DNA of 50,458 nucleotides from Lachnospiraceae bacterium. Its GTDB lineage: Bacteria > Bacteroidota > Bacteroidia > Flavobacteriales > Flavobacteriaceae. Shown piece after piece: positions 12,791 to 48,157 of this stretch. The DNA is taken from the NCBI GenBank assembly GCA_963595625.1, contig CAVBJB010000001.1, positions 1 through 50,458 on the forward strand, written 5' to 3'. The stretch's first letter is position 1; every line of letters begins with the position of its first letter. The notes below the pieces were generated by a model, which had not been told where the DNA came from, ran no database searches, and was given only the letters and a program-made list of their open reading frames with translations. A program made the translations under genes and the position numbers.

Positions 12791-13709
12791 AGTAATTCGC
12801 ATTGGTACTAGAGATAGCGAACTAGCCTTATGGCAAGCTCATACTGTACAAAAAAAATTAAACGATTTAGGCTATAAAACAGAAATTGTAGCTGTAAAAT
12901 CTCAAGGAGATATCATTTTAGATAAACCTTTATATGAACTAGGTATTACTGGAATTTTTACTAAAACTCTAGATATTGCCATGTTAGCAGGTCAAGTGGA
13001 TATTGCGGTTCATTCCATGAAGGATGTTCCAACAGCACTTCCTCAAGGTATTGTACAAGCAGCGGTTCTAGAAAGAGCTAAAACTGTAGACATTTTAGTA
13101 CACAAAGGGAATTTAGATTTTCTTGAAACTCAAGGAACTATTGCTACAGGGTCTTTACGCAGAAAAGCGCAGTGGTTAAGCAAATATCCGCAACATAACG
13201 TGGAAGATTTACGTGGAAATGTAAATACACGTATGCAAAAACTACAAGACAACTCTTGGAATGGAGCTATTTTTGCAGCAGCAGGTTTAGAAAGAATCAA
13301 CCTAAAACCCTCTGAATTTATCGATTTAGATTGGATGATTCCAGCTCCAGCACAAGGCGCAATGCTTGTTGTAGCTATGGAAAATGATGATTTTACTTTA
13401 GATGCTTTATCGCATTTAAATGATATTGAAACTGAAATTGCTGTAGCTATTGAACGTCAATTTTTAAGAACTTTAGAGGGCGGATGTACAGCTCCAATTG
13501 GTGCAGTAGCTCGTTATAACGATATCGATGACACTATTGAGTTTAAGGGTTGTTTACATTCTTTAGACGGTTCTCAAAAATTCGAAATCAATAAAGTTGT
13601 TCCGATTGAAGAATGGAAGAAATTAGGTTTTAACTGTGCTAAAGAAATTTTAGATAACGGAGGAGCCCAATTAATGGAACAAATCAAGACACAAATAACT
13701 AAAAAGTAA
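12783..13709 (+). CDS. hemC: Hydroxymethylbilane synthase (porphobilinogen deaminase)
   Basis: IGTRDSELALWQA, AVHSMKDVP, LRGNVNTR, LEGGCTAP; ATG 12783 overlaps the hemA end. Confidence 0.97.
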   Translation: MSKVIRIGTRDSELALWQAHTVQKKLNDLGYKTEIVAVKSQGDIILDKPLYELGITGIFTKTLDIAMLAGQVDIAVHSMKDVPTALPQGIVQAAVLERAKTVDILVHKGNLDFLETQGTIATGSLRRKAQWLSKYPQHNVEDLRGNVNTRMQKLQDNSWNGAIFAAAGLERINLKPSEFIDLDWMIPAPAQGAMLVVAMENDDFTLDALSHLNDIETEIAVAIERQFLRTLEGGCTAPIGAVARYNDIDDTIEFKGCLHSLDGSQKFEINKVVPIEEWKKLGFNCAKEILDNGGAQLMEQIKTQITKK

Positions 13710-14377
13710 TGCTTAAAGAAATCCGAGTTTTATCTACCAAAAAACTTCTTTTTAATCAAAAACAGTTTTTGCTTAATGCCGGATTTAGTGTTCTTGAGGC
13801 GGATTTTATTTCCATTAAAGAATTACCTTTTACATTACAAAATACACCTAGCTTGTTACTTTTTACCTCACAAAATGCTGTAAAAAGTGTACTTAAAAAC
13901 CCAAATAGTAATTTTTTAAAAACTGTTCCTTGCGTTTGCGTAGGTATAAAGACAAAAAATCTTTTAGAAAATTCTGGTTTTAAAGTACTAGCCATGAAAG
14001 AGTACGCCGAGGAATTAGCCCCTATAATACAAAGTAGTTTTAATACCTTTGAAATTGCTTTTTTTGCAGGAAATATTCGCAGAGATATACTTCCAAACGC
14101 TTTAAATCAAGCAGCTATTAATTTTACGGAATATACGGTTTACCAAAACTCTTCTTCCCAAATTAAAATTAATACACCAGTGGATGCTTTATTGTTTTAC
14201 AGCCCCTCTGGAATTAAAAGTTATTTAAAAGAAAATACAATTACCCATCAGGTTTGTTTTTGCATTGGTACAACAACTGCCCAAGCATTAAACGGAATTA
14301 CAAATAACATTGTAATTGCCAACCAACAAACCATTGAGAACGTAATTATACAATGCATAAATTATTATAAAAAATAG
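13709..14377 (+). CDS. hemD: Uroporphyrinogen-III synthase
   Basis: FTSQNAV, VGIKT, FYSPSGI, CIGTTTA; TAATG coupling to hemC. Confidence 0.9.
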   Translation: MLKEIRVLSTKKLLFNQKQFLLNAGFSVLEADFISIKELPFTLQNTPSLLLFTSQNAVKSVLKNPNSNFLKTVPCVCVGIKTKNLLENSGFKVLAMKEYAEELAPIIQSSFNTFEIAFFAGNIRRDILPNALNQAAINFTEYTVYQNSSSQIKINTPVDALLFYSPSGIKSYLKENTITHQVCFCIGTTTAQALNGITNNIVIANQQTIENVIIQCINYYKK

Positions 14378-14423
14378 TTCGTAGCTGGTAACTGTTAGCT
14401 ATCTACTGTAAACTTATCAAAAT

Positions 14424-15449
14424 ATGTTAAAAAACGATTTATTTCTAAGAGCTCTTAAAGGAGAAACGGTTGAAAGACCTCCGGTATGGATGATGCGTCA
14501 AGCAGGACGTTATTTACCAGAATTCCGTGCATTACGTGACAAGTATGATTTCTTTACACGTTGTAAAACTCCTGAATTAGCTTCAGAAATTACCGTTCAA
14601 CCTATCCGTATCGTTAAACCAGATGCAGCTATTTTATTTTCTGATATCTTAGTTGTACCTCAAGCCATGGGAATCGATGTAGAGTTAAAAGATAACATCG
14701 GGCCAATTATCCCTAACCCAATCCGTTCTATGAAGGATGTAGAGCAAGTTTACATTCCGGACATCAATGAAAGTTTAGGTTACGTTATGGACGCTATTGA
14801 CATGACTAAAGACATGTTAAATAACGAAGTACCTTTAATTGGTTTTGCTGGTTCTCCATGGACAATTTTTTGTTATGCGGTAGAAGGTAAAGGATCTAAA
14901 TCATATGATAAAGCAAAAGGTTTCTGTTTTTCTGAACCTGTAGCTGCACATGCTTTATTACAAAAAATTACAGATACTACTATTCTTTATTTAAAAGAAA
15001 AAGTAAAACACGGAGTTAATGCTGTACAAATTTTTGATTCTTGGGGAGGTATGTTATCTCCAGTAGATTATCAAGAATTCTCTTGGAAATACATCAACCA
15101 AATCGTTGAGGCTTTAGCTGACGAAATTCCAGTAATTGTATTTGGAAAAGGTTGTTGGTTTGCTCTTGGAGATATGGCTAAATCTAAAGCATCTGCATTA
15201 GGAGTAGACTGGACATGTTCACCAAAAACAGCTCGTGCGTTAACAGGTGGAAATATCACATTACAAGGAAACTTTGATCCTTCTCGTTTATTATCACCAA
15301 TTCCAACCATCAAGAAAATGGTTCATGAAATGATTGACGAATTTGGAAAAGAAAAATACATTGTAAACTTAGGACATGGTATTTTACCTAACATTCCGGT
15401 AGATCACGCAAAAGCATTTATCGAAGCGGTAAAAGAATATAACAAATAA
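14424..15449 (+). CDS. hemE: Uroporphyrinogen decarboxylase
   Basis: [35 protein letters not shown]. Confidence 0.97.
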
Positions 15450-15450
15450 T

Positions 15451-15489
15451 AAAATCCTACAAGGTTTACGAATCTTGTAGGATTTTTTT
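15451..15489 (+). terminator. Intrinsic terminator between hemE and hemF
   Basis: AAAATCCTACAAGGTT-TACG-AATCTTGTAGGATTTT followed by more T. Confidence 0.75.
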
Positions 15490-15520
15490 CTTACAAGAGA
15501 TATACCTTAATTTCTACAAA

Positions 15521-16423
15521 ATGAAAGAAAAATTTTATCAATATATCCAGCAATTACAAGATACCATTACTTCTAAATTAGAAGAAATAGACGGTGTTGC
15601 TAAATTTCAACAAGATTTATGGGAGCGACCAGAAGGTGGCGGTGGTAGAACACGCGTTATCGAAAACGGAGCTATTTTTGAAAAAGGTGGAGTAAATATA
15701 TCTGCTGTTGAAGGTCATTTACCAGAAGCGATGCAAAAAGCGTTTAACGTAGGTGATGTTGATTTTTTTGCTTGCGGATTAAGTTTGGTTTTACATCCTA
15801 AAAACCCAATGGTTCCTACAGTTCACGCCAATTGGAGGTATTTTGAAATGTATGATAAAACAGGAACTAAAGTAGGTTCTTGGTTTGGAGGAGGTCAAGA
15901 TTTAACGCCGTATTATTTATTTGAAGAAGATGCGATTCATTTTCACCAAGTATGTAAAAATGCGTGCGACAAACACAATCCAGAATTTTATCCAAAATAC
16001 AAAAAAGTATGTGATGAATATTTCTGGAACACTCACCGTCATGAAGCGCGTGGAATTGGAGGTTTATTCTTTGACCATTTAGTGGAAACGGATGAAATGT
16101 CAATGGAAAACTGGTACGATTTCGTAACAGAAGTAGGTAATAGTTTCTTAGAAAGTTACGTTCCAATTGTAGAACGTAGAAAAGATTTAGCATACTCAGA
16201 AGCAAACAGAACGTGGCAAGAAATTCGTAGAGGTCGTTATGTTGAATTTAATTTAGTTCACGATAGAGGAACTATTTTCGGATTAAAAACCAACGGACGT
16301 ATCGAATCGATTTTAATGAGTTTACCACCACACGTACAATGGGTGTACGATCATCATCCAGAACCAGGAAGCGAAGAAGAGAAATTGATTAAGGTATTAG
16401 CTGAACCGAAAGCTTGGTTGTAA
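15521..16423 (+). CDS. hemF: Oxygen-dependent coproporphyrinogen-III oxidase
   Basis: FEKGGVN, WFGGGQDLTP, RGIGGLFFD, RRGRYVEFNL, GRIESILMSLP. Confidence 0.97.
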   Translation: MKEKFYQYIQQLQDTITSKLEEIDGVAKFQQDLWERPEGGGGRTRVIENGAIFEKGGVNISAVEGHLPEAMQKAFNVGDVDFFACGLSLVLHPKNPMVPTVHANWRYFEMYDKTGTKVGSWFGGGQDLTPYYLFEEDAIHFHQVCKNACDKHNPEFYPKYKKVCDEYFWNTHRHEARGIGGLFFDHLVETDEMSMENWYDFVTEVGNSFLESYVPIVERRKDLAYSEANRTWQEIRRGRYVEFNLVHDRGTIFGLKTNGRIESILMSLPPHVQWVYDHHPEPGSEEEKLIKVLAEPKAWL

Positions 16424-16447
16424 TCTAATAGTTTACTAGAACTACTA

Positions 16448-16599
16448 GTCATCCTCAACTTCTTTCAGGATATCAATAAAGAGAATGAGAAGCTGAACTA
16501 AATTCAGCTTGGAAGTATTATTTTAGATCATCTTGTCATTCCGACGAAGGAGGAATCTAAAAGATTCTTCACTCCATTACATTCCGTTCAAAATGACAA
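16448..16599. repeat. REP/REPIN-like palindrome cluster in the hemF-hemB spacer
   Basis: Inverted doublet TTGTCATTCCGACGAAGGAGGAATCT (16533-16558) / AGATTCTTC...AAATGACAA (16562-16599), plus degenerate GTCATCCT..AGGAT and AAGCTGAA..TTCAGCTT hairpins. Confidence 0.75.
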
Positions 16600-16660
16600 A
16601 TATTAATAAAACCATCTAATAACTCAATTCTAAAAGCTATTAGCTAAAAAAATAAACAAA

Positions 16661-17659
16661 ATGTTCCCATTACACAGAGGTAGAAGATTAAGACAAAACG
16701 AATCAATAAGAAGTTTGGTTCGTGAAACAAGTTTAAGTCCAGCAGATTTTATGTTCCCAATGTTTATTGTGGAAGGTGAAAATCAACAAATCGAGATTCC
16801 ATCAATGCCTGGAATTTACCGTCGCTCTATAGATTTAACGGTAAAAGAAGTTCAAGAGTTATTTGATTTAGGAATTCGTGCTGTAAATATTTACGTAAAA
16901 GTAAGCGACGATTTAAAAGACAATACAGGTAAAGAAGCTTGGAACCCAGAAGGGTTAATGCAACGTGCCATTCGCGCTATTAAAGCGGCTGTACCAGAAA
17001 TGATCGTTATGCCAGACGTAGCATTAGATCCTTATTCTATGTACGGACACGACGGTATCATTAAAAACGGTGATATCGAAAACGATTCGACTGTTGAAGC
17101 TTTAGTAAAAATGGCTGTTTCACATGCAGAAGCTGGAGCTGATTTCGTAGCGCCTTCTGATATGATGGACGGACGTATTTTACGTTTACGCGAAGGTTTA
17201 GACAAAGCAGGATTTGTGAATGTTGGTATTATGAGTTATTCTGCAAAATACGCATCTGCGTTTTACGGACCTTTCCGTGATGCACTAGACTCTGCACCTA
17301 AAGAAACAGGTGAAGTTGTTCCTAAAGACAAAAAAACATACCAAATGGATTATGCCAACCGTATCGAAGCTATTAAAGAAGCGGTTTGGGATGCAGAAGA
17401 AGGTGCTGATATGGTTATGGTAAAACCGGGAACTGCTTATTTAGATATTGTTCGTGAGGTAAAAGACAATGTAAATATTCCTGTAGCTGTTTATCACGTT
17501 TCGGGTGAATATGCTATGATCAAAGCAGCTGCTGAAAAAGGTTGGTTGGATCACGACAAAATTATGATGGAGCAATTGATGTGTATTAAACGTGCAGGCG
17601 CAAGTTTAATTTCTACTTATTTTGCAAAAGAAGCGGCAATTTTATTAAACCAAAAATAA
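16661..17659 (+). CDS. hemB: Porphobilinogen synthase (ALA dehydratase), Asp-rich type without the Zn-binding Cys triad
   Basis: APSDMMDGR, SAKYASAFYGPFRDA, MVKP, VSGEY; metal site reads DVALDPYSMYGHDG. Confidence 0.97.
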   Translation: MFPLHRGRRLRQNESIRSLVRETSLSPADFMFPMFIVEGENQQIEIPSMPGIYRRSIDLTVKEVQELFDLGIRAVNIYVKVSDDLKDNTGKEAWNPEGLMQRAIRAIKAAVPEMIVMPDVALDPYSMYGHDGIIKNGDIENDSTVEALVKMAVSHAEAGADFVAPSDMMDGRILRLREGLDKAGFVNVGIMSYSAKYASAFYGPFRDALDSAPKETGEVVPKDKKTYQMDYANRIEAIKEAVWDAEEGADMVMVKPGTAYLDIVREVKDNVNIPVAVYHVSGEYAMIKAAAEKGWLDHDKIMMEQLMCIKRAGASLISTYFAKEAAILLNQK

Positions 17660-17660
17660 G

Positions 17661-18047
17661 ATGAAACACCTTATATTACTTTTAAGTTTTGCTTTAACTA
17701 TTGTTTCTTGTGGTAAAACAGAAGAAAAAAAAGAAGCGCTTTATCCTGAAAAAGAATTAAGTGCAGAGGAGCAAAAAATTGCTTGGGGTAAAGAACTTTT
17801 TGAAGGATCTAAGGCTACTTGTTACAGTTGCCACAGACCAGATAAAAAAGTTATTGGACCAAGTATTGCTGAGATTGCTAAAATCTACAAAGAACAAAAT
17901 GGAGACATGAAAGCTTTTTTATTAGAGAAAGCTGAGCCAATTGTAGATCCTAAGCAATACGCAACCATGAAAACAAATTTTAATGTAACTAAAAATCTTC
18001 CGGAAGAAGAGTTAGAGGCTATAATTGCTTATATGATGAGTTACTAA
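17661..18047 (+). CDS. Lipoprotein monoheme c-type cytochrome
   Basis: Lipobox IVSC, single CYSCH, IGPS and a distal Met. Confidence 0.88.
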   Translation: MKHLILLLSFALTIVSCGKTEEKKEALYPEKELSAEEQKIAWGKELFEGSKATCYSCHRPDKKVIGPSIAEIAKIYKEQNGDMKAFLLEKAEPIVDPKQYATMKTNFNVTKNLPEEELEAIIAYMMSY

Positions 18048-18095: not shown

Positions 18096-18113
18096 GCCCA
18101 AGCCTTTACTCTT

Positions 18114-18196
18114 AGCCCTGATAGAGCCGGTATCCTTTTTAAAAGATTTTTACGTTATGTATGTTGTCTTTTAAAAAGATAAAGGCGAAAGCAGGA
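18114..18196 (+). repeat. Solo Flavo-1-like structured element
   Basis: CCTG-ATAGA-GCC-GGT-ATCCTTTTT...AAAAAGAT-AAA-GGC-GAAAG-CAGG; same architecture as the units at 1-540 and 48034. Confidence 0.75.
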
Positions 18197-18272
18197 ACGA
18201 ACCAAAATTTTAAACCCAAATGTTAACTGCTTCTTAAAAAAATTAATTATATTTATGTAAACACTTGTAATT

Positions 18273-20174: not shown

Positions 20175-20206
20175 TTTGGTGGTTAAAAAATTTATTCAGA
20201 ATTTTG
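20175..20206 (+). promoter_or_regulatory. Candidate promoter for the leader/OsmC transcript
   Basis: TTTG (20175-20178), 20-bp spacer, GAATTTTG (20199-20206; one mismatch to TAnnTTTG). Confidence 0.45.
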
Positions 20207-20242: not shown

Positions 20243-20326
20243 ATGAACGCAATTAATTTTACATATAAACATAATTATAAGCAGATGTGTTTTTCGCATA
20301 TGTGCTTGGCTTTATATATTATGTAA
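20243..20326 (+). CDS. Leader peptide 1, MNAINFTYKHNYKQMCFSHMCLALYIM (27 aa)
   Basis: ATG after an A-rich tract; Met-Cys twice plus terminal Met; 3' part complementary to the downstream terminator arm. Confidence 0.75.
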   Translation: MNAINFTYKHNYKQMCFSHMCLALYIM

Positions 20327-20357
20327 GTAAACGTGTTCTGTTTAAAATATATCATAT

Positions 20358-20391
20358 AAAGCCTCGCCAATTTACTTGTCGAGGCTTTTTT
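20358..20391 (+). terminator. Attenuator terminator 1
   Basis: AAAGCCTCG-C-CAA-TTTAC-TTG-T-CGAGGCTTT and T tract; GGCTTTATAT (20308-20317) is the exact complement of 20354-20363. Confidence 0.8.
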
Positions 20392-20425
20392 CTTTAAAAT
20401 AAATTAATCGTCAAAATAAAAAATT

Positions 20426-20506
20426 ATGTTACAATTAGGTTTAAATACAAATAATAAGTGTATTAAGTCGTGGATGTATATCCGCCAGGGGACCTATTGT
20501 AAATAA
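20426..20506 (+). CDS. Leader peptide 2, MLQLGLNTNNKCIKSWMYIRQGTYCK (26 aa)
   Basis: ATG after an A-rich tract; two Cys and one internal Met; contains the antiterminator GGGACCT. Confidence 0.7.
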   Translation: MLQLGLNTNNKCIKSWMYIRQGTYCK

Positions 20507-20540
20507 GATGTGTATATTAGTTGTTATAGATATTTTTTTT

Positions 20541-20575
20541 AAGGTCCCATAGGCATTTGCTTGTGGGACTTTTTT
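20541..20575 (+). terminator. Attenuator terminator 2
   Basis: GTCCCATAGGC-ATTT-GCTTGTGGGAC then TTTTTT; GGGACCT (20489-20495) is the exact complement of AGGTCCC (20542-20548). Confidence 0.8.
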
Positions 20576-20650
20576 ATTAGCAGAAGTTTTGCCCAAGGGC
20601 ATTTTTATATAGAAGAACATATTAGAAGTAGAATTAAAACTTTAGAAATT

Positions 20651-21109
20651 ATGAGTAGACAAGTAGTAAACGTATTAGGCTTTTCGAGCAATGAAAACCA
20701 ATTTGTAGTAAAATCACAAAACTTTTCAGTGAAAATTAATAACCAAATGGTAAATGCTGAATCAGAGCATCCAAGTCCAATTGAGTATTTATTATCTGGA
20801 ATTGCAGGTAGTATTAATGCTACAGGTCAAATTGTTGCCAAAGAGCTAAATATGGATTTAAAATCTATTCAAGTTGAAATTTCTGGAGAAATAGAGTCTA
20901 AAAAATTTGAAGGGGAAAAAACACGATCTCGAGCAGGATTACGTGCTATAGAGGTCGTCATAAAACCTACTTCTAACGCTTCTATACCTACTCTAAAATT
21001 ATGGATGGACACGGTTAAAGAAAGATGTCCTATTTACGATAACCTAATTAATAATACACCCGTAAGTATTTCATTAGTTAAAGATTATTTTCAGCAAAAT
21101 GTTGCGTAA
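20651..21109 (+). CDS. OsmC/Ohr-family protein (152 aa), first conserved Cys replaced by Ser
   Basis: PSPIEYLLSGIAGS..., ERCPIYDNL; ATG 20651 preferred because the track's TTG 20561 lies inside terminator 2. Confidence 0.82.
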   Translation: MSRQVVNVLGFSSNENQFVVKSQNFSVKINNQMVNAESEHPSPIEYLLSGIAGSINATGQIVAKELNMDLKSIQVEISGEIESKKFEGEKTRSRAGLRAIEVVIKPTSNASIPTLKLWMDTVKERCPIYDNLINNTPVSISLVKDYFQQNVA

Positions 21110-21161: not shown

Positions 21162-21192
21162 AAAACCTCTTCTATCCAGAAGAGGTTTTTTT
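21162..21192 (+). terminator. Intrinsic terminator after the OsmC-family gene
   Basis: AAAACCTCTTCT-ATCC-AGAAGAGGTTTT followed by more T. Confidence 0.85.
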
Positions 21193-23084: not shown

Positions 23085-24689
23085 ATGTCAGATTTTATAT
23101 ATCAGGATTCATTTCCTATCCAAAAAGATGATACTCAGTATCGTAAAATTACTTCAGATTACGTAAAAGTTGAAAAATTAGGAGAACGCGAAATATTAAC
23201 TGTAGATCCTAAAGGATTAGAATTATTAGCGGAAGTTGCCATGACAGACGTATCTTTTATGTTACGTACAGCTCACTTAGAAAAACTACGCGCGATTATT
23301 GACGATCCAGAAGCAACAGATAACGATCGTTTCGTAGCTTATAATTTATTACAAAACGCTGCTGTAGCAGTTAATGGAGAATTACCATCTTGCCAAGATA
23401 CAGGAACGGCGATTGTAATGGGTAAAAAAGGTGAAAATGTTTATACTGGAATTGATGATGCTGAAGCTTTATCTAAAGGTATTTACAACACATATGTTAA
23501 TAAGAATTTAAGATACTCTCAAATTGTACCAATCTCAATGTTTGAGGAGAAAAACTCAGGATCAAACTTACCGGCACAAATTGATATCTACTCTAAAAAA
23601 GGAAATTCTTATGAATTCTTATTTTTAGCAAAAGGAGGAGGATCTGCTAACAAAACCTTCCTTTACCAACAAACAAAATCGTTATTAAACGAGAAGTCTT
23701 TAGAGGCGTTTATTAAAGCTAAAATTATGGATTTAGGAACAGCTGCATGCCCTCCTTACCATTTAGCCTTAGTAATTGGTGGAACATCTGCCGAATCTAA
23801 CTTAGCAACCGTTAAAAAAGCATCTGCAGGTTATTACGACAATTTACCAACAAGTGGTAATATGGCAGGACAAGCGTTTCGTGATTTAGCGTGGGAAAAA
23901 AGAGTACAGGAAATTTGTCAAGAATCTGGAGTAGGTGCACAATTTGGTGGTAAATACCTAGTACACGACGTTCGTGTAATACGTTTACCTCGTCACGCGG
24001 CATCTTGTCCCGTTGGTTTAGGTGTTTCTTGTTCTGCGGACAGAAATATTAAAGGTAAAATTACAGCTGAAGGTATTTTTGTTGAACAATTAGAAGCTAA
24101 CCCAGCTCGATTATTACCTGAAACGGCTCCGCATTTAGAAGCTCCAGTTAACATTGATTTAAATCAACCTATGGCTGATATTTTAGCAGAGTTAACAAAA
24201 TACCCTATTAAAACTCGTTTAATGTTAAACGGAACTGTAATTGTTGCACGAGATATTGCTCATGCTAAAATTAAAGAAATGTTAGATAACGGGCAACCAA
24301 TGCCAGAGTACTTTAAAAATCACCCGGTTTATTATGCTGGACCTGCAAAAACTCCAACAGGAATGGCTTCAGGATCTTTTGGACCAACTACTGCTGGACG
24401 TATGGACAGCTACGTAGACCAATTCCAGGCAGCTGGTGGTTCTATGATTATGTTAGCTAAAGGTAACCGTTCTCAACAAGTTACAGATGCGTGTGCTAAA
24501 CACGGAGGTTTTTACCTTGGATCTATTGGTGGACCGGCTGCTATTTTAGCACAGGATAACATTTTAAATGTTGAAGTAGTTGATTTCCCAGAGTTAGGAA
24601 TGGAAGCTGTACGTAAAATTACAGTTAAAGATTTCCCTGCTTTCATTATTACGGATGACAAAGGAAACGACTTTTTCCAAAACTTATAA
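23085..24689 (+). CDS. Class I (Fe-S) fumarate hydratase, FumA/FumB type
   Basis: [43 protein letters not shown]. Confidence 0.95.
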
Positions 24690-24711
24690 TAAGCAATACC
24701 TATATATATTT

Positions 24712-24743
24712 AAGCCTCTTTGTTATGCAAAGAGGCTTTTTTT
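24712..24743 (+). terminator. Intrinsic terminator after fumarase
   Basis: AAGCCTCTTTG-TTATG-CAAAGAGGCTT followed by a T tract. Confidence 0.85.
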
Positions 24744-47255: not shown

Positions 47256-47326
47256 AGGCATCTAGCGGATTCGAACCGCTGTTGACGGTTTTGCAGACCG
47301 CTTCCTAGCCACTCGGACAAGATGCC
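47256..47326 (-). tRNA. tRNA-Cys (GCA), CCA not encoded
   Basis: Minus strand GGCATCT/AGATGCC acceptor stem with U discriminator, GCGGT-CTGCAAA-ACCGT anticodon arm, AGCGG-TTCGAAT-CCGCT T arm. Confidence 0.96.
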
Positions 47327-48027: not shown

Positions 48028-48033
48028 TTTTTT

Positions 48034-48157
48034 GCATGAGGGATAGAGGCGGTATCCTTTGGTTTAAAATGGAGTTTACGGAATTTTTAAAACCAAAGAT
48101 TAAGCCGAAAGCCCGACCTATAAAAAACGACGGTAGGAGTTTTTGTATAGGGCATGC
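48034..48157 (+). repeat. Structured repeat copy C (Flavo-1-like core inside the three-way-junction frame)
   Basis: GCATG-A-GGG-ATAGA-GGC-GGT-ATCCTTTGG...CCAAAGAT-TAA-GCC-GAAAG-CCC-GA-CCTATA...TATAGG-G-CATGC. Confidence 0.85.

Follow-up and report, generated by a model that had tools for sequence, protein, structure and literature searches.

A candidate double leader-peptide attenuator sensing methionine and cysteine upstream of an OsmC-family gene in Flavobacteriaceae

Methionine genes are known to be controlled by repressors, SAM riboswitches or T-boxes. The locus described here raises the question whether stalling of ribosomes on methionine and cysteine codons could control transcription of an OsmC-family gene. 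The window, i.e. the whole stretch of 50,458 nucleotides that was analysed, carries on its plus strand at 20651..21109 an open reading frame of 152 amino acids which matches Pfam OsmC (PF02566, E 3e-14) and thus contains an OsmC-like domain. It is preceded by two upstream ORFs (uORFs), each followed by a hairpin. The original prediction had seen here two leader-peptide attenuators with a link to sulfur amino acids. This layout is supported by the relatives, in which the copies precede the met operon and cysH and are enriched for Met and Cys in frame. The coordinates given for the uORFs, antiterminators and terminators were all exact, and the downstream gene was correctly recognised.

All features of the leader lie on the plus strand. 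In the first module, uORF1 (20243..20326) codes for 27 amino acids, and its likely sensing codons are Met15-Cys16. It is overlapped by a predicted 1:2 (protector or pause) hairpin at 20278..20308, for which the consensus of the relatives has a 4-bp equivalent, and by antiterminator 1 (20304..20368; core 20308-20317 with 20354-20363), and intrinsic terminator 1 follows at 20358..20391. In the second module, uORF2 (20426..20506) codes for 26 amino acids with Cys12 and Met17, adjoining Trp16, as candidate sensing codons; a weak 1:2 hairpin is predicted at 20470..20485, antiterminator 2 covers 20484..20554 (core 20489-20495 with 20542-20548) and intrinsic terminator 2 covers 20541..20575. In both cores one strand is the perfect reverse complement of the other. 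The antiterminators of 10 bp and 7 bp originally proposed are these cores, and the full hairpins are longer. The z-scores are inflated because the folded regions were picked by eye; they were -2.9 for the 1:2 hairpin of module 1 (-12.8 kcal/mol), -0.6 and not above chance for that of module 2, -4.7 and -5.0 for antiterminators 1 and 2, and -5.1 and -6.2 for terminators 1 and 2. Taken alone, each antiterminator is more stable than its terminator (-19.5 versus -14.6 kcal/mol in module 1 and -26.1 versus -21.3 kcal/mol in module 2).

A promoter-like site of the Bacteroidota type is predicted at 20176..20206 (TTG at 20176-20178, a 20-nt spacer and a -7 box at 20199-20206 with one mismatch), and it was also found in the closest relative, L032. 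A possible internal -7 box at 20584..20591, with one mismatch and a TTG 20 nt upstream, is absent from L032. These scans assumed the known Bacteroidota promoter pattern and start-context consensus; a sigma-70 promoter scan was uninformative (8 sites against 6.0 expected). A hairpin with a U-tract, read by eye at 21162..21192 (plus strand) 3' of osmC, is likely to be the end of a one-gene osmC transcript. At the gathering score no Rfam family was found on the leader of the window and 12 relatives, including SAM riboswitches, T-boxes and other cis-elements, and a search of NCBIfam with both uORF peptides gave no family. Elsewhere in the window, Rfam detected three Flavo-1 RNAs (418-508, 18110-18202 and 48029-48122) and one tRNA (47256-47326), which has the anticodon GCA and is therefore tRNA-Cys. 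The Flavo-1 RNAs are indicative of a genome of Flavobacterium type. The stretch 13709-18047 holds a gene cluster resembling heme biosynthesis together with a cytochrome c, and from their translations we take the genes to be hemD, hemE, hemF and hemB.

A pattern scan of both strands of the window's own genome returned 724 hairpins with a U-tract. A small ORF ends 5-60 nt upstream of 111 of these sites, and 14 of the 111 also have an antiterminator helix score of at least 16, in a scan that missed module 1 of the window and module 2 of a second leader on contig C209. An OsmC orthologue was present in 85 of 400 genomes of the genus; 80 of the 85 loci were analysed, five on short contigs being left out, which together with the window makes 81. 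Conservation of the uORFs upstream of orthologues had been proposed as a check, and both modules were found upstream of the osmC orthologue or its operon at 69 of the 81 loci, a count that overstates independent events as the loci are kin, and in which the automatic choice of ORF is doubtful for about six modules (L033, L082, L088, L100, L106, L110). The attenuator layout is beyond chance, because 14 of 724 sites in the own genome match it and because both modules recur at these 69 loci. Both were present in 27/27 osmC-first met operons, in 23/25 metY/metX-first operons and in 19/29 loci with a stand-alone osmC, which is the class of the window. Incomplete leaders had module 1 only in nine cases and module 2 only in three, one of them clipped by the edge of the locus. 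The osmC gene lies inside a methionine operon at 52 of the 81 loci, with metY, metX, aspartate kinase/homoserine dehydrogenase, metH and metF as operon content and metK divergent.

Between the window and L032, whose OsmC proteins are 86% identical, both frames, the terminators and the antiterminator cores are kept while the spacers drift. Antiterminator 1 is retained with one A-U to G-U change, and the core of antiterminator 2 is identical and is read in another frame in L032. An A at -3 was seen at 82% and 68% of uORF starts, compared with 73% for genes and 22% for internal ATG. A short uORF with a gene-like start is thus conserved upstream of the operon, as in an attenuator. By pattern match, promoter-like sites lie upstream of uORF1 at 48/78 loci, between the modules at 1/69 and after terminator 2 at 2/69, one of which is the window. 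One clade (L034-L040, L048, L064) has an ORF of some 55 codons in the interval from terminator 2 to osmC, with a C-terminus common to its members.

Covariation was another of the checks proposed, and it was clear for both terminators and for antiterminator 1. RNAalifold was run on 54 of 78 module-1 and 49 of 72 module-2 sequences, near-duplicates and poor parses having been removed by hand. Both terminators were recovered with compensatory changes, at 8 of 13 pairs for terminator 1, a count that includes a 4-bp 1:2 helix also held by the module-1 consensus, and at 8 of 12 pairs for terminator 2. For antiterminator 1, 24 cells with two-sided changes were obtained from the 54 sequences and were reached by 0 of 500 shuffles; in the window and L032 this antiterminator is shifted from the family register, so the 24-cell count is no direct test of the helix in the window. 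Antiterminator 2 covaries weakly (90% paired, 4 cells with double changes, reached by 48 of 500 shuffles). These shuffle comparisons take no account of kinship. An intrinsic terminator with covariation therefore lies between uORF and gene, which is the arrangement of an attenuator.

Codon content was assessed in a sensing zone of ten codons ending at least 9 nt before the antiterminator, and modules with a helix score below 14 were dropped. In this zone, which is itself defined from the antiterminator, Met and Cys made up 37-43% and 23-27% of codons in metY-first leaders, 13-19% and 12-13% in osmC-first operons, and 10-14% and 6-7% at stand-alone osmC genes. The corresponding values were 2-3% and 2-5% in shuffles and 1.7% and 0.65% in neighbouring proteins. 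Enrichment in frame over both controls, which the original prediction had named as a check, is strong before met and cys genes and weaker at stand-alone osmC, where Met is about 5-fold over shuffles and the Cys enrichment is small. Over whole uORFs, Met accounted for 5-22% of codons in frame versus 0.1-1.3% out of frame; Cys codons are frequent out of frame too (4-8%). In the window each sensing zone contains a single Met and a single Cys. In many uORF2s the terminal Cys lies inside the antiterminator and cannot sense. Met occupies one fixed place in 53 of 61 module-1 uORFs, and three different reading frames run through the antiterminator core; as the frame differs between genomes, the ends of the uORFs are constrained as RNA and not as peptide.

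The Met:Cys counts of the gene-proximal uORF before metY were 64:0 of 163 codons in seven related stand-alone-osmC genomes and 72:46 of 275 codons in 14 other genomes; they were 51:20 in eight other genera and, before cysH, 26:33 of 224 codons. This tracking of the target pathway by codon content, in which each group consists of a few clades, is the strongest argument for codon sensing.

A purely thermodynamic switch was considered, and equilibrium folding speaks against it, since the terminator prevails even when a ribosome has stalled. In the finished leader with the ribosome footprint removed the terminator was dominant almost everywhere, and with a stalled ribosome P(terminator) fell below 0.5 in 13/75 and 3/70 modules; in the window it was 0.6-0.7 for module 1 and 1.0 for module 2. 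As equilibrium favours termination, the switch must be co-transcriptional. Nascent RNA folded before the 3' arm of the terminator emerges did show the pattern of an attenuator. With the ribosome stalled at a Met or Cys codon of the zone, capture of the 5' arm exceeded 0.5 in all 145 of the 145 modules having such a codon, and with the ribosome at the stop codon it did so in 3 of 150. Median capture was 0.75-0.96 on zone Met/Cys versus 0.02-0.25 at the stop, by a measure that is soft, as shuffled uORFs gave medians of 0.37-0.57 and naked RNA medians of 0.39-0.93. In uORF1 of the window the predicted capture was 0.84 at Met15/Cys16 and 0.00-0.05 at Met20/Cys21; in uORF2 it was 1.0 at Cys12 and Trp16, 0.62 at Met17, which lies at the edge, and 0.27 at Cys25. 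The original view that Met-Cys occurring twice in uORF1 forms the sensor has to be narrowed accordingly: a ribosome on Met20/Cys21 covers the antiterminator and this second pair is absent in L032. By the model, sensing would be confined to the first Met-Cys pair of uORF1 and, in uORF2, to Cys12/Met17, all of which are kept in L032. Each module thus has an antiterminator that excludes the terminator and whose 5' strand lies in the uORF, free on stalling and covered at the stop, with the reservation that covariation is weak in module 2 and that equilibrium favours termination.

Taken together, we put the probability at roughly 70% that the leader of the window is a working double ribosome-mediated transcription attenuator which responds mainly to Met-tRNA and secondarily to Cys-tRNA. 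With ample charged Met-tRNA (and Cys-tRNA), the ribosome would reach the stop codon and cover the 5' strand of the antiterminator, and the terminator would form. On a stall at Met15/Cys16 in module 1 or at Cys12/Met17 in module 2, the free strand would capture the emerging 5' arm of the terminator and the polymerase would continue. Transcription of osmC would then occur only if ribosomes stall on Met, and secondarily Cys, codons in both uORFs. With two modules for the same amino acids leak-through would be multiplied, giving a tighter and steeper switch, and since both modules read the same amino acids this would be a double lock and not signal integration. From the folding model we infer that such a double attenuator would be kinetically controlled.

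The presence of Trp in the sensing zone allows another reading, which we consider unlikely: that the osmC copy is a translation-coupled attenuator that has been retuned to Trp (and His) besides Met, or to a general slowing of ribosomes, for example on loss of oxidation-prone amino acids. Trp is found in 34 of 47 osmC-directed module-2 uORFs (in 25 as Trp-Met) versus 2 of 25 directed to metY/X, but this codon is predicted to be paired in 33 of the 34, with varying partners, and the Trp codon of module 1 falls inside the conserved 4-bp helix. Zone frequencies of 8% for Trp and 6-11% for His exceed the 1-3% of shuffles, and the capture predicted with the ribosome on Trp16 of the window is complete; against this, a conserved hexamer together with the in-frame Met forces Trp in frame, and Met is still the most enriched residue.

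It is rather improbable that the leader is a decaying relic of a met-operon leader, with osmC expressed with little regulation from leak-through or from an internal promoter. The few sensing codons, the equilibrium preference for termination and the loss of one module at 10 of the 29 stand-alone loci are in line with decay, but frames, terminators and antiterminator cores have been kept between the window and L032 despite the drifting spacers, and the 10-bp antiterminator of the window, which pairs perfectly, is set in a new register of its own. The promoter-like site at 20584 would serve such a relic, but L032 lacks it.

The original prediction had gone further and proposed a serial AND gate with two inputs, in which leader 2 could be a ligand-dependent arrest peptide. 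We give this a very low probability. The Met/Cys-poor uORF2 of the window and the position of Trp, which in most Trp-bearing osmC leaders stands 11-16 codons before the stop and is loosely TnaC-like, speak for it. A conserved peptide up to a fixed arrest site, as in TnaC or ErmCL, was however not found, since the last 10 residues diverge and the frame shifts between close relatives, the antiterminator being in another frame in L032. Tandem attenuators with two signals do exist, as described for Salmonella mgtCBR in PMC3641672, but here both modules carry Met and Cys and no different sensing element per module was seen, the Trp bias of module 2 at osmC aside; further, the orthologous uORF2 before metY is the most Met-rich of all. 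That the leader is an untranslated RNA switch, a riboswitch of unknown type or a protein-binding leader with its AUG/UGU repeats as RNA motifs, is hardly credible, for although the antiterminator frequently forms in modelled naked RNA and Cys codons are common out of frame, Met is concentrated in frame, the uORF starts are in gene-like context, and in the window and 12 relatives the leader matched no Rfam family, while SAM-I and SAM-II were detected at metH and metK.

The tandem leader also occurs before other genes. Covariance models were built from both modules, and R1 and R2 were used for genome searches. The top match of both models in the window's own genome was another tandem leader, located 5' of metX on contig C209 (L112:539-841), with uORFs at 539-607 and 683-781, two terminators and strong Met/Cys coding; it was missed by blastn of the window leader against the own genome and was found by the covariance models and a metX search. 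It precedes metX, homoserine dehydrogenase and a PLP enzyme, and there is a perfect -7 promoter box around positions 510-517. This stronger paralogous leader, like the SAM riboswitches of metK and metH, had escaped the original prediction. In stand-alone-osmC genomes elsewhere a second leader lies before metY, and in one also before metH. An arrangement of leader, osmC, leader and metX occurs in L035, L038, L039 and L064 with both modules and in L040, where module 1 scored, and could plausibly have been a step towards the split found in the window. The window copy has diverged and is weakly coded; it is likely to be a paralogue of the met-operon leader, retained by osmC when the operon split. 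Having few sensing codons, it would need deeper starvation than the metX copy.

Elsewhere the genes that follow the leader include metY, metX, metH and cysH, in keeping with the original suggestion that met/cys genes should be looked for there. Of the 12 closest loci of a cysH subgroup (L213-L223), 11 have uORF-terminator leaders, although the first ORF counted at L220 is doubtful, and the second module is often different and Cys-rich; 18 more distant cysH genes had no uORF-terminator leader within 1.45 kb, most of them lying behind another gene. In L246 (1500-2464), L250 (1500-3102), L199 and L171, single module-1 copies were seen before a TonB-dependent receptor and an acyltransferase with hexapeptide repeats, which is possibly cysE; metH and a gene of the cystathionine lyase/synthase family are preceded by tandem copies.

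The leader was found almost solely in its own family. At E 1e-5 in the order, R1 matched 11/20 own-family genomes and 1/129 from other families, the lone match (L251) having a Met-rich ORF and no downstream gene called; in the phylum sample it matched 8/10 own-family genomes and 0/139 others, in a search by which diverged forms would be missed. The R2 tallies of 116/150 (genus) and 66/150 (family) overstate the range, as weak matches are included. R2 matches below about 50 bits are probably ordinary terminators, an example from the window being 24641-24743, where the gene at 23085-24689 ends. The own genome has a SAM-I riboswitch before metH (L113:1150-1253) and a SAM-II riboswitch before metK (L114:152-211), and Rfam on 12 loci gave the same pair, SAM-II at metK and SAM-I at metH, in most relatives scanned. 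On the minus strand of contig C57 of the same genome, with its terminator at about 7485, a Phe-rich leader ORF, an antiterminator and a terminator stand in the same layout. This Phe-rich leader is a classical attenuator, and the gene 3' of it is presumably pheA-like, judging from its N-terminus.

We lean slightly towards the view that Flavobacteriaceae run their whole sulfur amino-acid regulon by ribosome-stalling attenuators, through a duplicable double-leader cassette recoded for each target and working beside the metK/metH SAM riboswitches. The recoding that forms part of this view, which we favour to the same small degree, would run from near-pure Met before metY through a Cys-shifted content before cysH to sparse Met/Cys with Trp before osmC. 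On the same modest footing, these would be the first attenuators that sense Met codons, and they would point to an OsmC-like protein, mostly with one cysteine, that takes an unrecognised part in methionine or sulfur metabolism.

OsmC/Ohr peroxidases work with two conserved cysteines. The protein of the window has Ser54 in place of the first and keeps the second, Cys126, and so lacks the two-cysteine pair of these peroxidases. In 79 aligned OsmC proteins both cysteines were present in 31, the second only in 29, the first only in 17 and neither in 2; which cysteine has been lost differs between clades of the subfamily (Ser/Cys, Cys/Ser or Cys/Cys). As 31 of 79 have both, the protein is not to be filed as a standard two-cysteine peroxidase, and the clade-wise loss suggests a function other than that of such an enzyme. 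A PDB sequence search with this OsmC gave only weak OsmC-like matches (E 0.02-0.04). In Pelagibacter, osmC is under SAM-riboswitch control and, as reported in PMC5069961, was one of the four mRNAs that sulfur limitation induced most. By analogy with this gene, the placement in met operons suggests that the protein could have a role in sulfur starvation or methionine synthesis. Under the attenuator reading, this one-cysteine OsmC-like protein is likely to be a sulfur-starvation protein. The leader thus offers a functional lead for an atypical OsmC subfamily.

A sensor of Met faces a special problem, as the leader itself needs formyl-Met to start; in the model an untranslated leader gives read-through in many copies and termination in others. 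The natural variants, with two strengths within one genome, could show how codon content sets specificity and threshold, and the leader would be a test case for what is gained by doubling an attenuator. It would also be evidence of transcription-translation coupling in its lineage, which is not known to use Shine-Dalgarno initiation.

Classical leader-peptide attenuators are those of trp, his, thr, pheA and ilv in E. coli and Salmonella. The leader resembles them in having a short uORF, control codons for the product of the pathway, an antiterminator overlapping the uORF and a competing intrinsic terminator; it differs in its Met (and Cys) codons, in having two full modules in series and in its copies across met, cys and osmC genes; the comparison is one of layout. 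Such attenuators are summarised in 10.1101/834739. Full-text searches and term look-ups in PMC4833913, PMC2965389, PMC11109978, PMC1262725, PMC8632094 and PMC5737381 yielded neither an attenuator reading Met codons nor any account of the present leader, which comparative surveys of attenuation beyond this range (reportedly including one by Lopatovskaya et al., 2010) could list. Cys-codon leaders and tandem attenuators are already known, and no published description of Met-codon sensing came up within this scope. In uORFC-8-2, a predicted Cys attenuator before cysS in Rhodobacterales (PMC8632094), there are likewise Cys codons in a uORF, a terminator and predicted stalling-dependent read-through, but it is a single alphaproteobacterial module with Cys only and a tRNA-synthetase target. 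In the mycobacterial polycysteine leaderless sORFs, experimentally shown in 10.1101/834739 and predicted earlier in PMC1262725, sulfur amino-acid codons in a short ORF also gate sulfur genes; that control is translational, by Shine-Dalgarno occlusion, with Cys only, a single unit and no intrinsic terminator. The Salmonella mgtCBR leader contains two uORF-based attenuators which, according to PMC3641672, respond additively to two signals (ATP and proline), whereas here the same codon types recur and each module has its intrinsic terminator. A further parallel is Pelagibacter osmC/bhmT/metY, where osmC is likewise co-regulated with methionine genes under tandem RNA elements (PMC5069961); those elements are metabolite-binding aptamers, not coupled to translation, in an unrelated lineage. 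What the window contributes is a leader on a stand-alone osmC that is a diverged paralogue, a pair of copies within one genome, an extension to cys genes and a codon content that follows the target.
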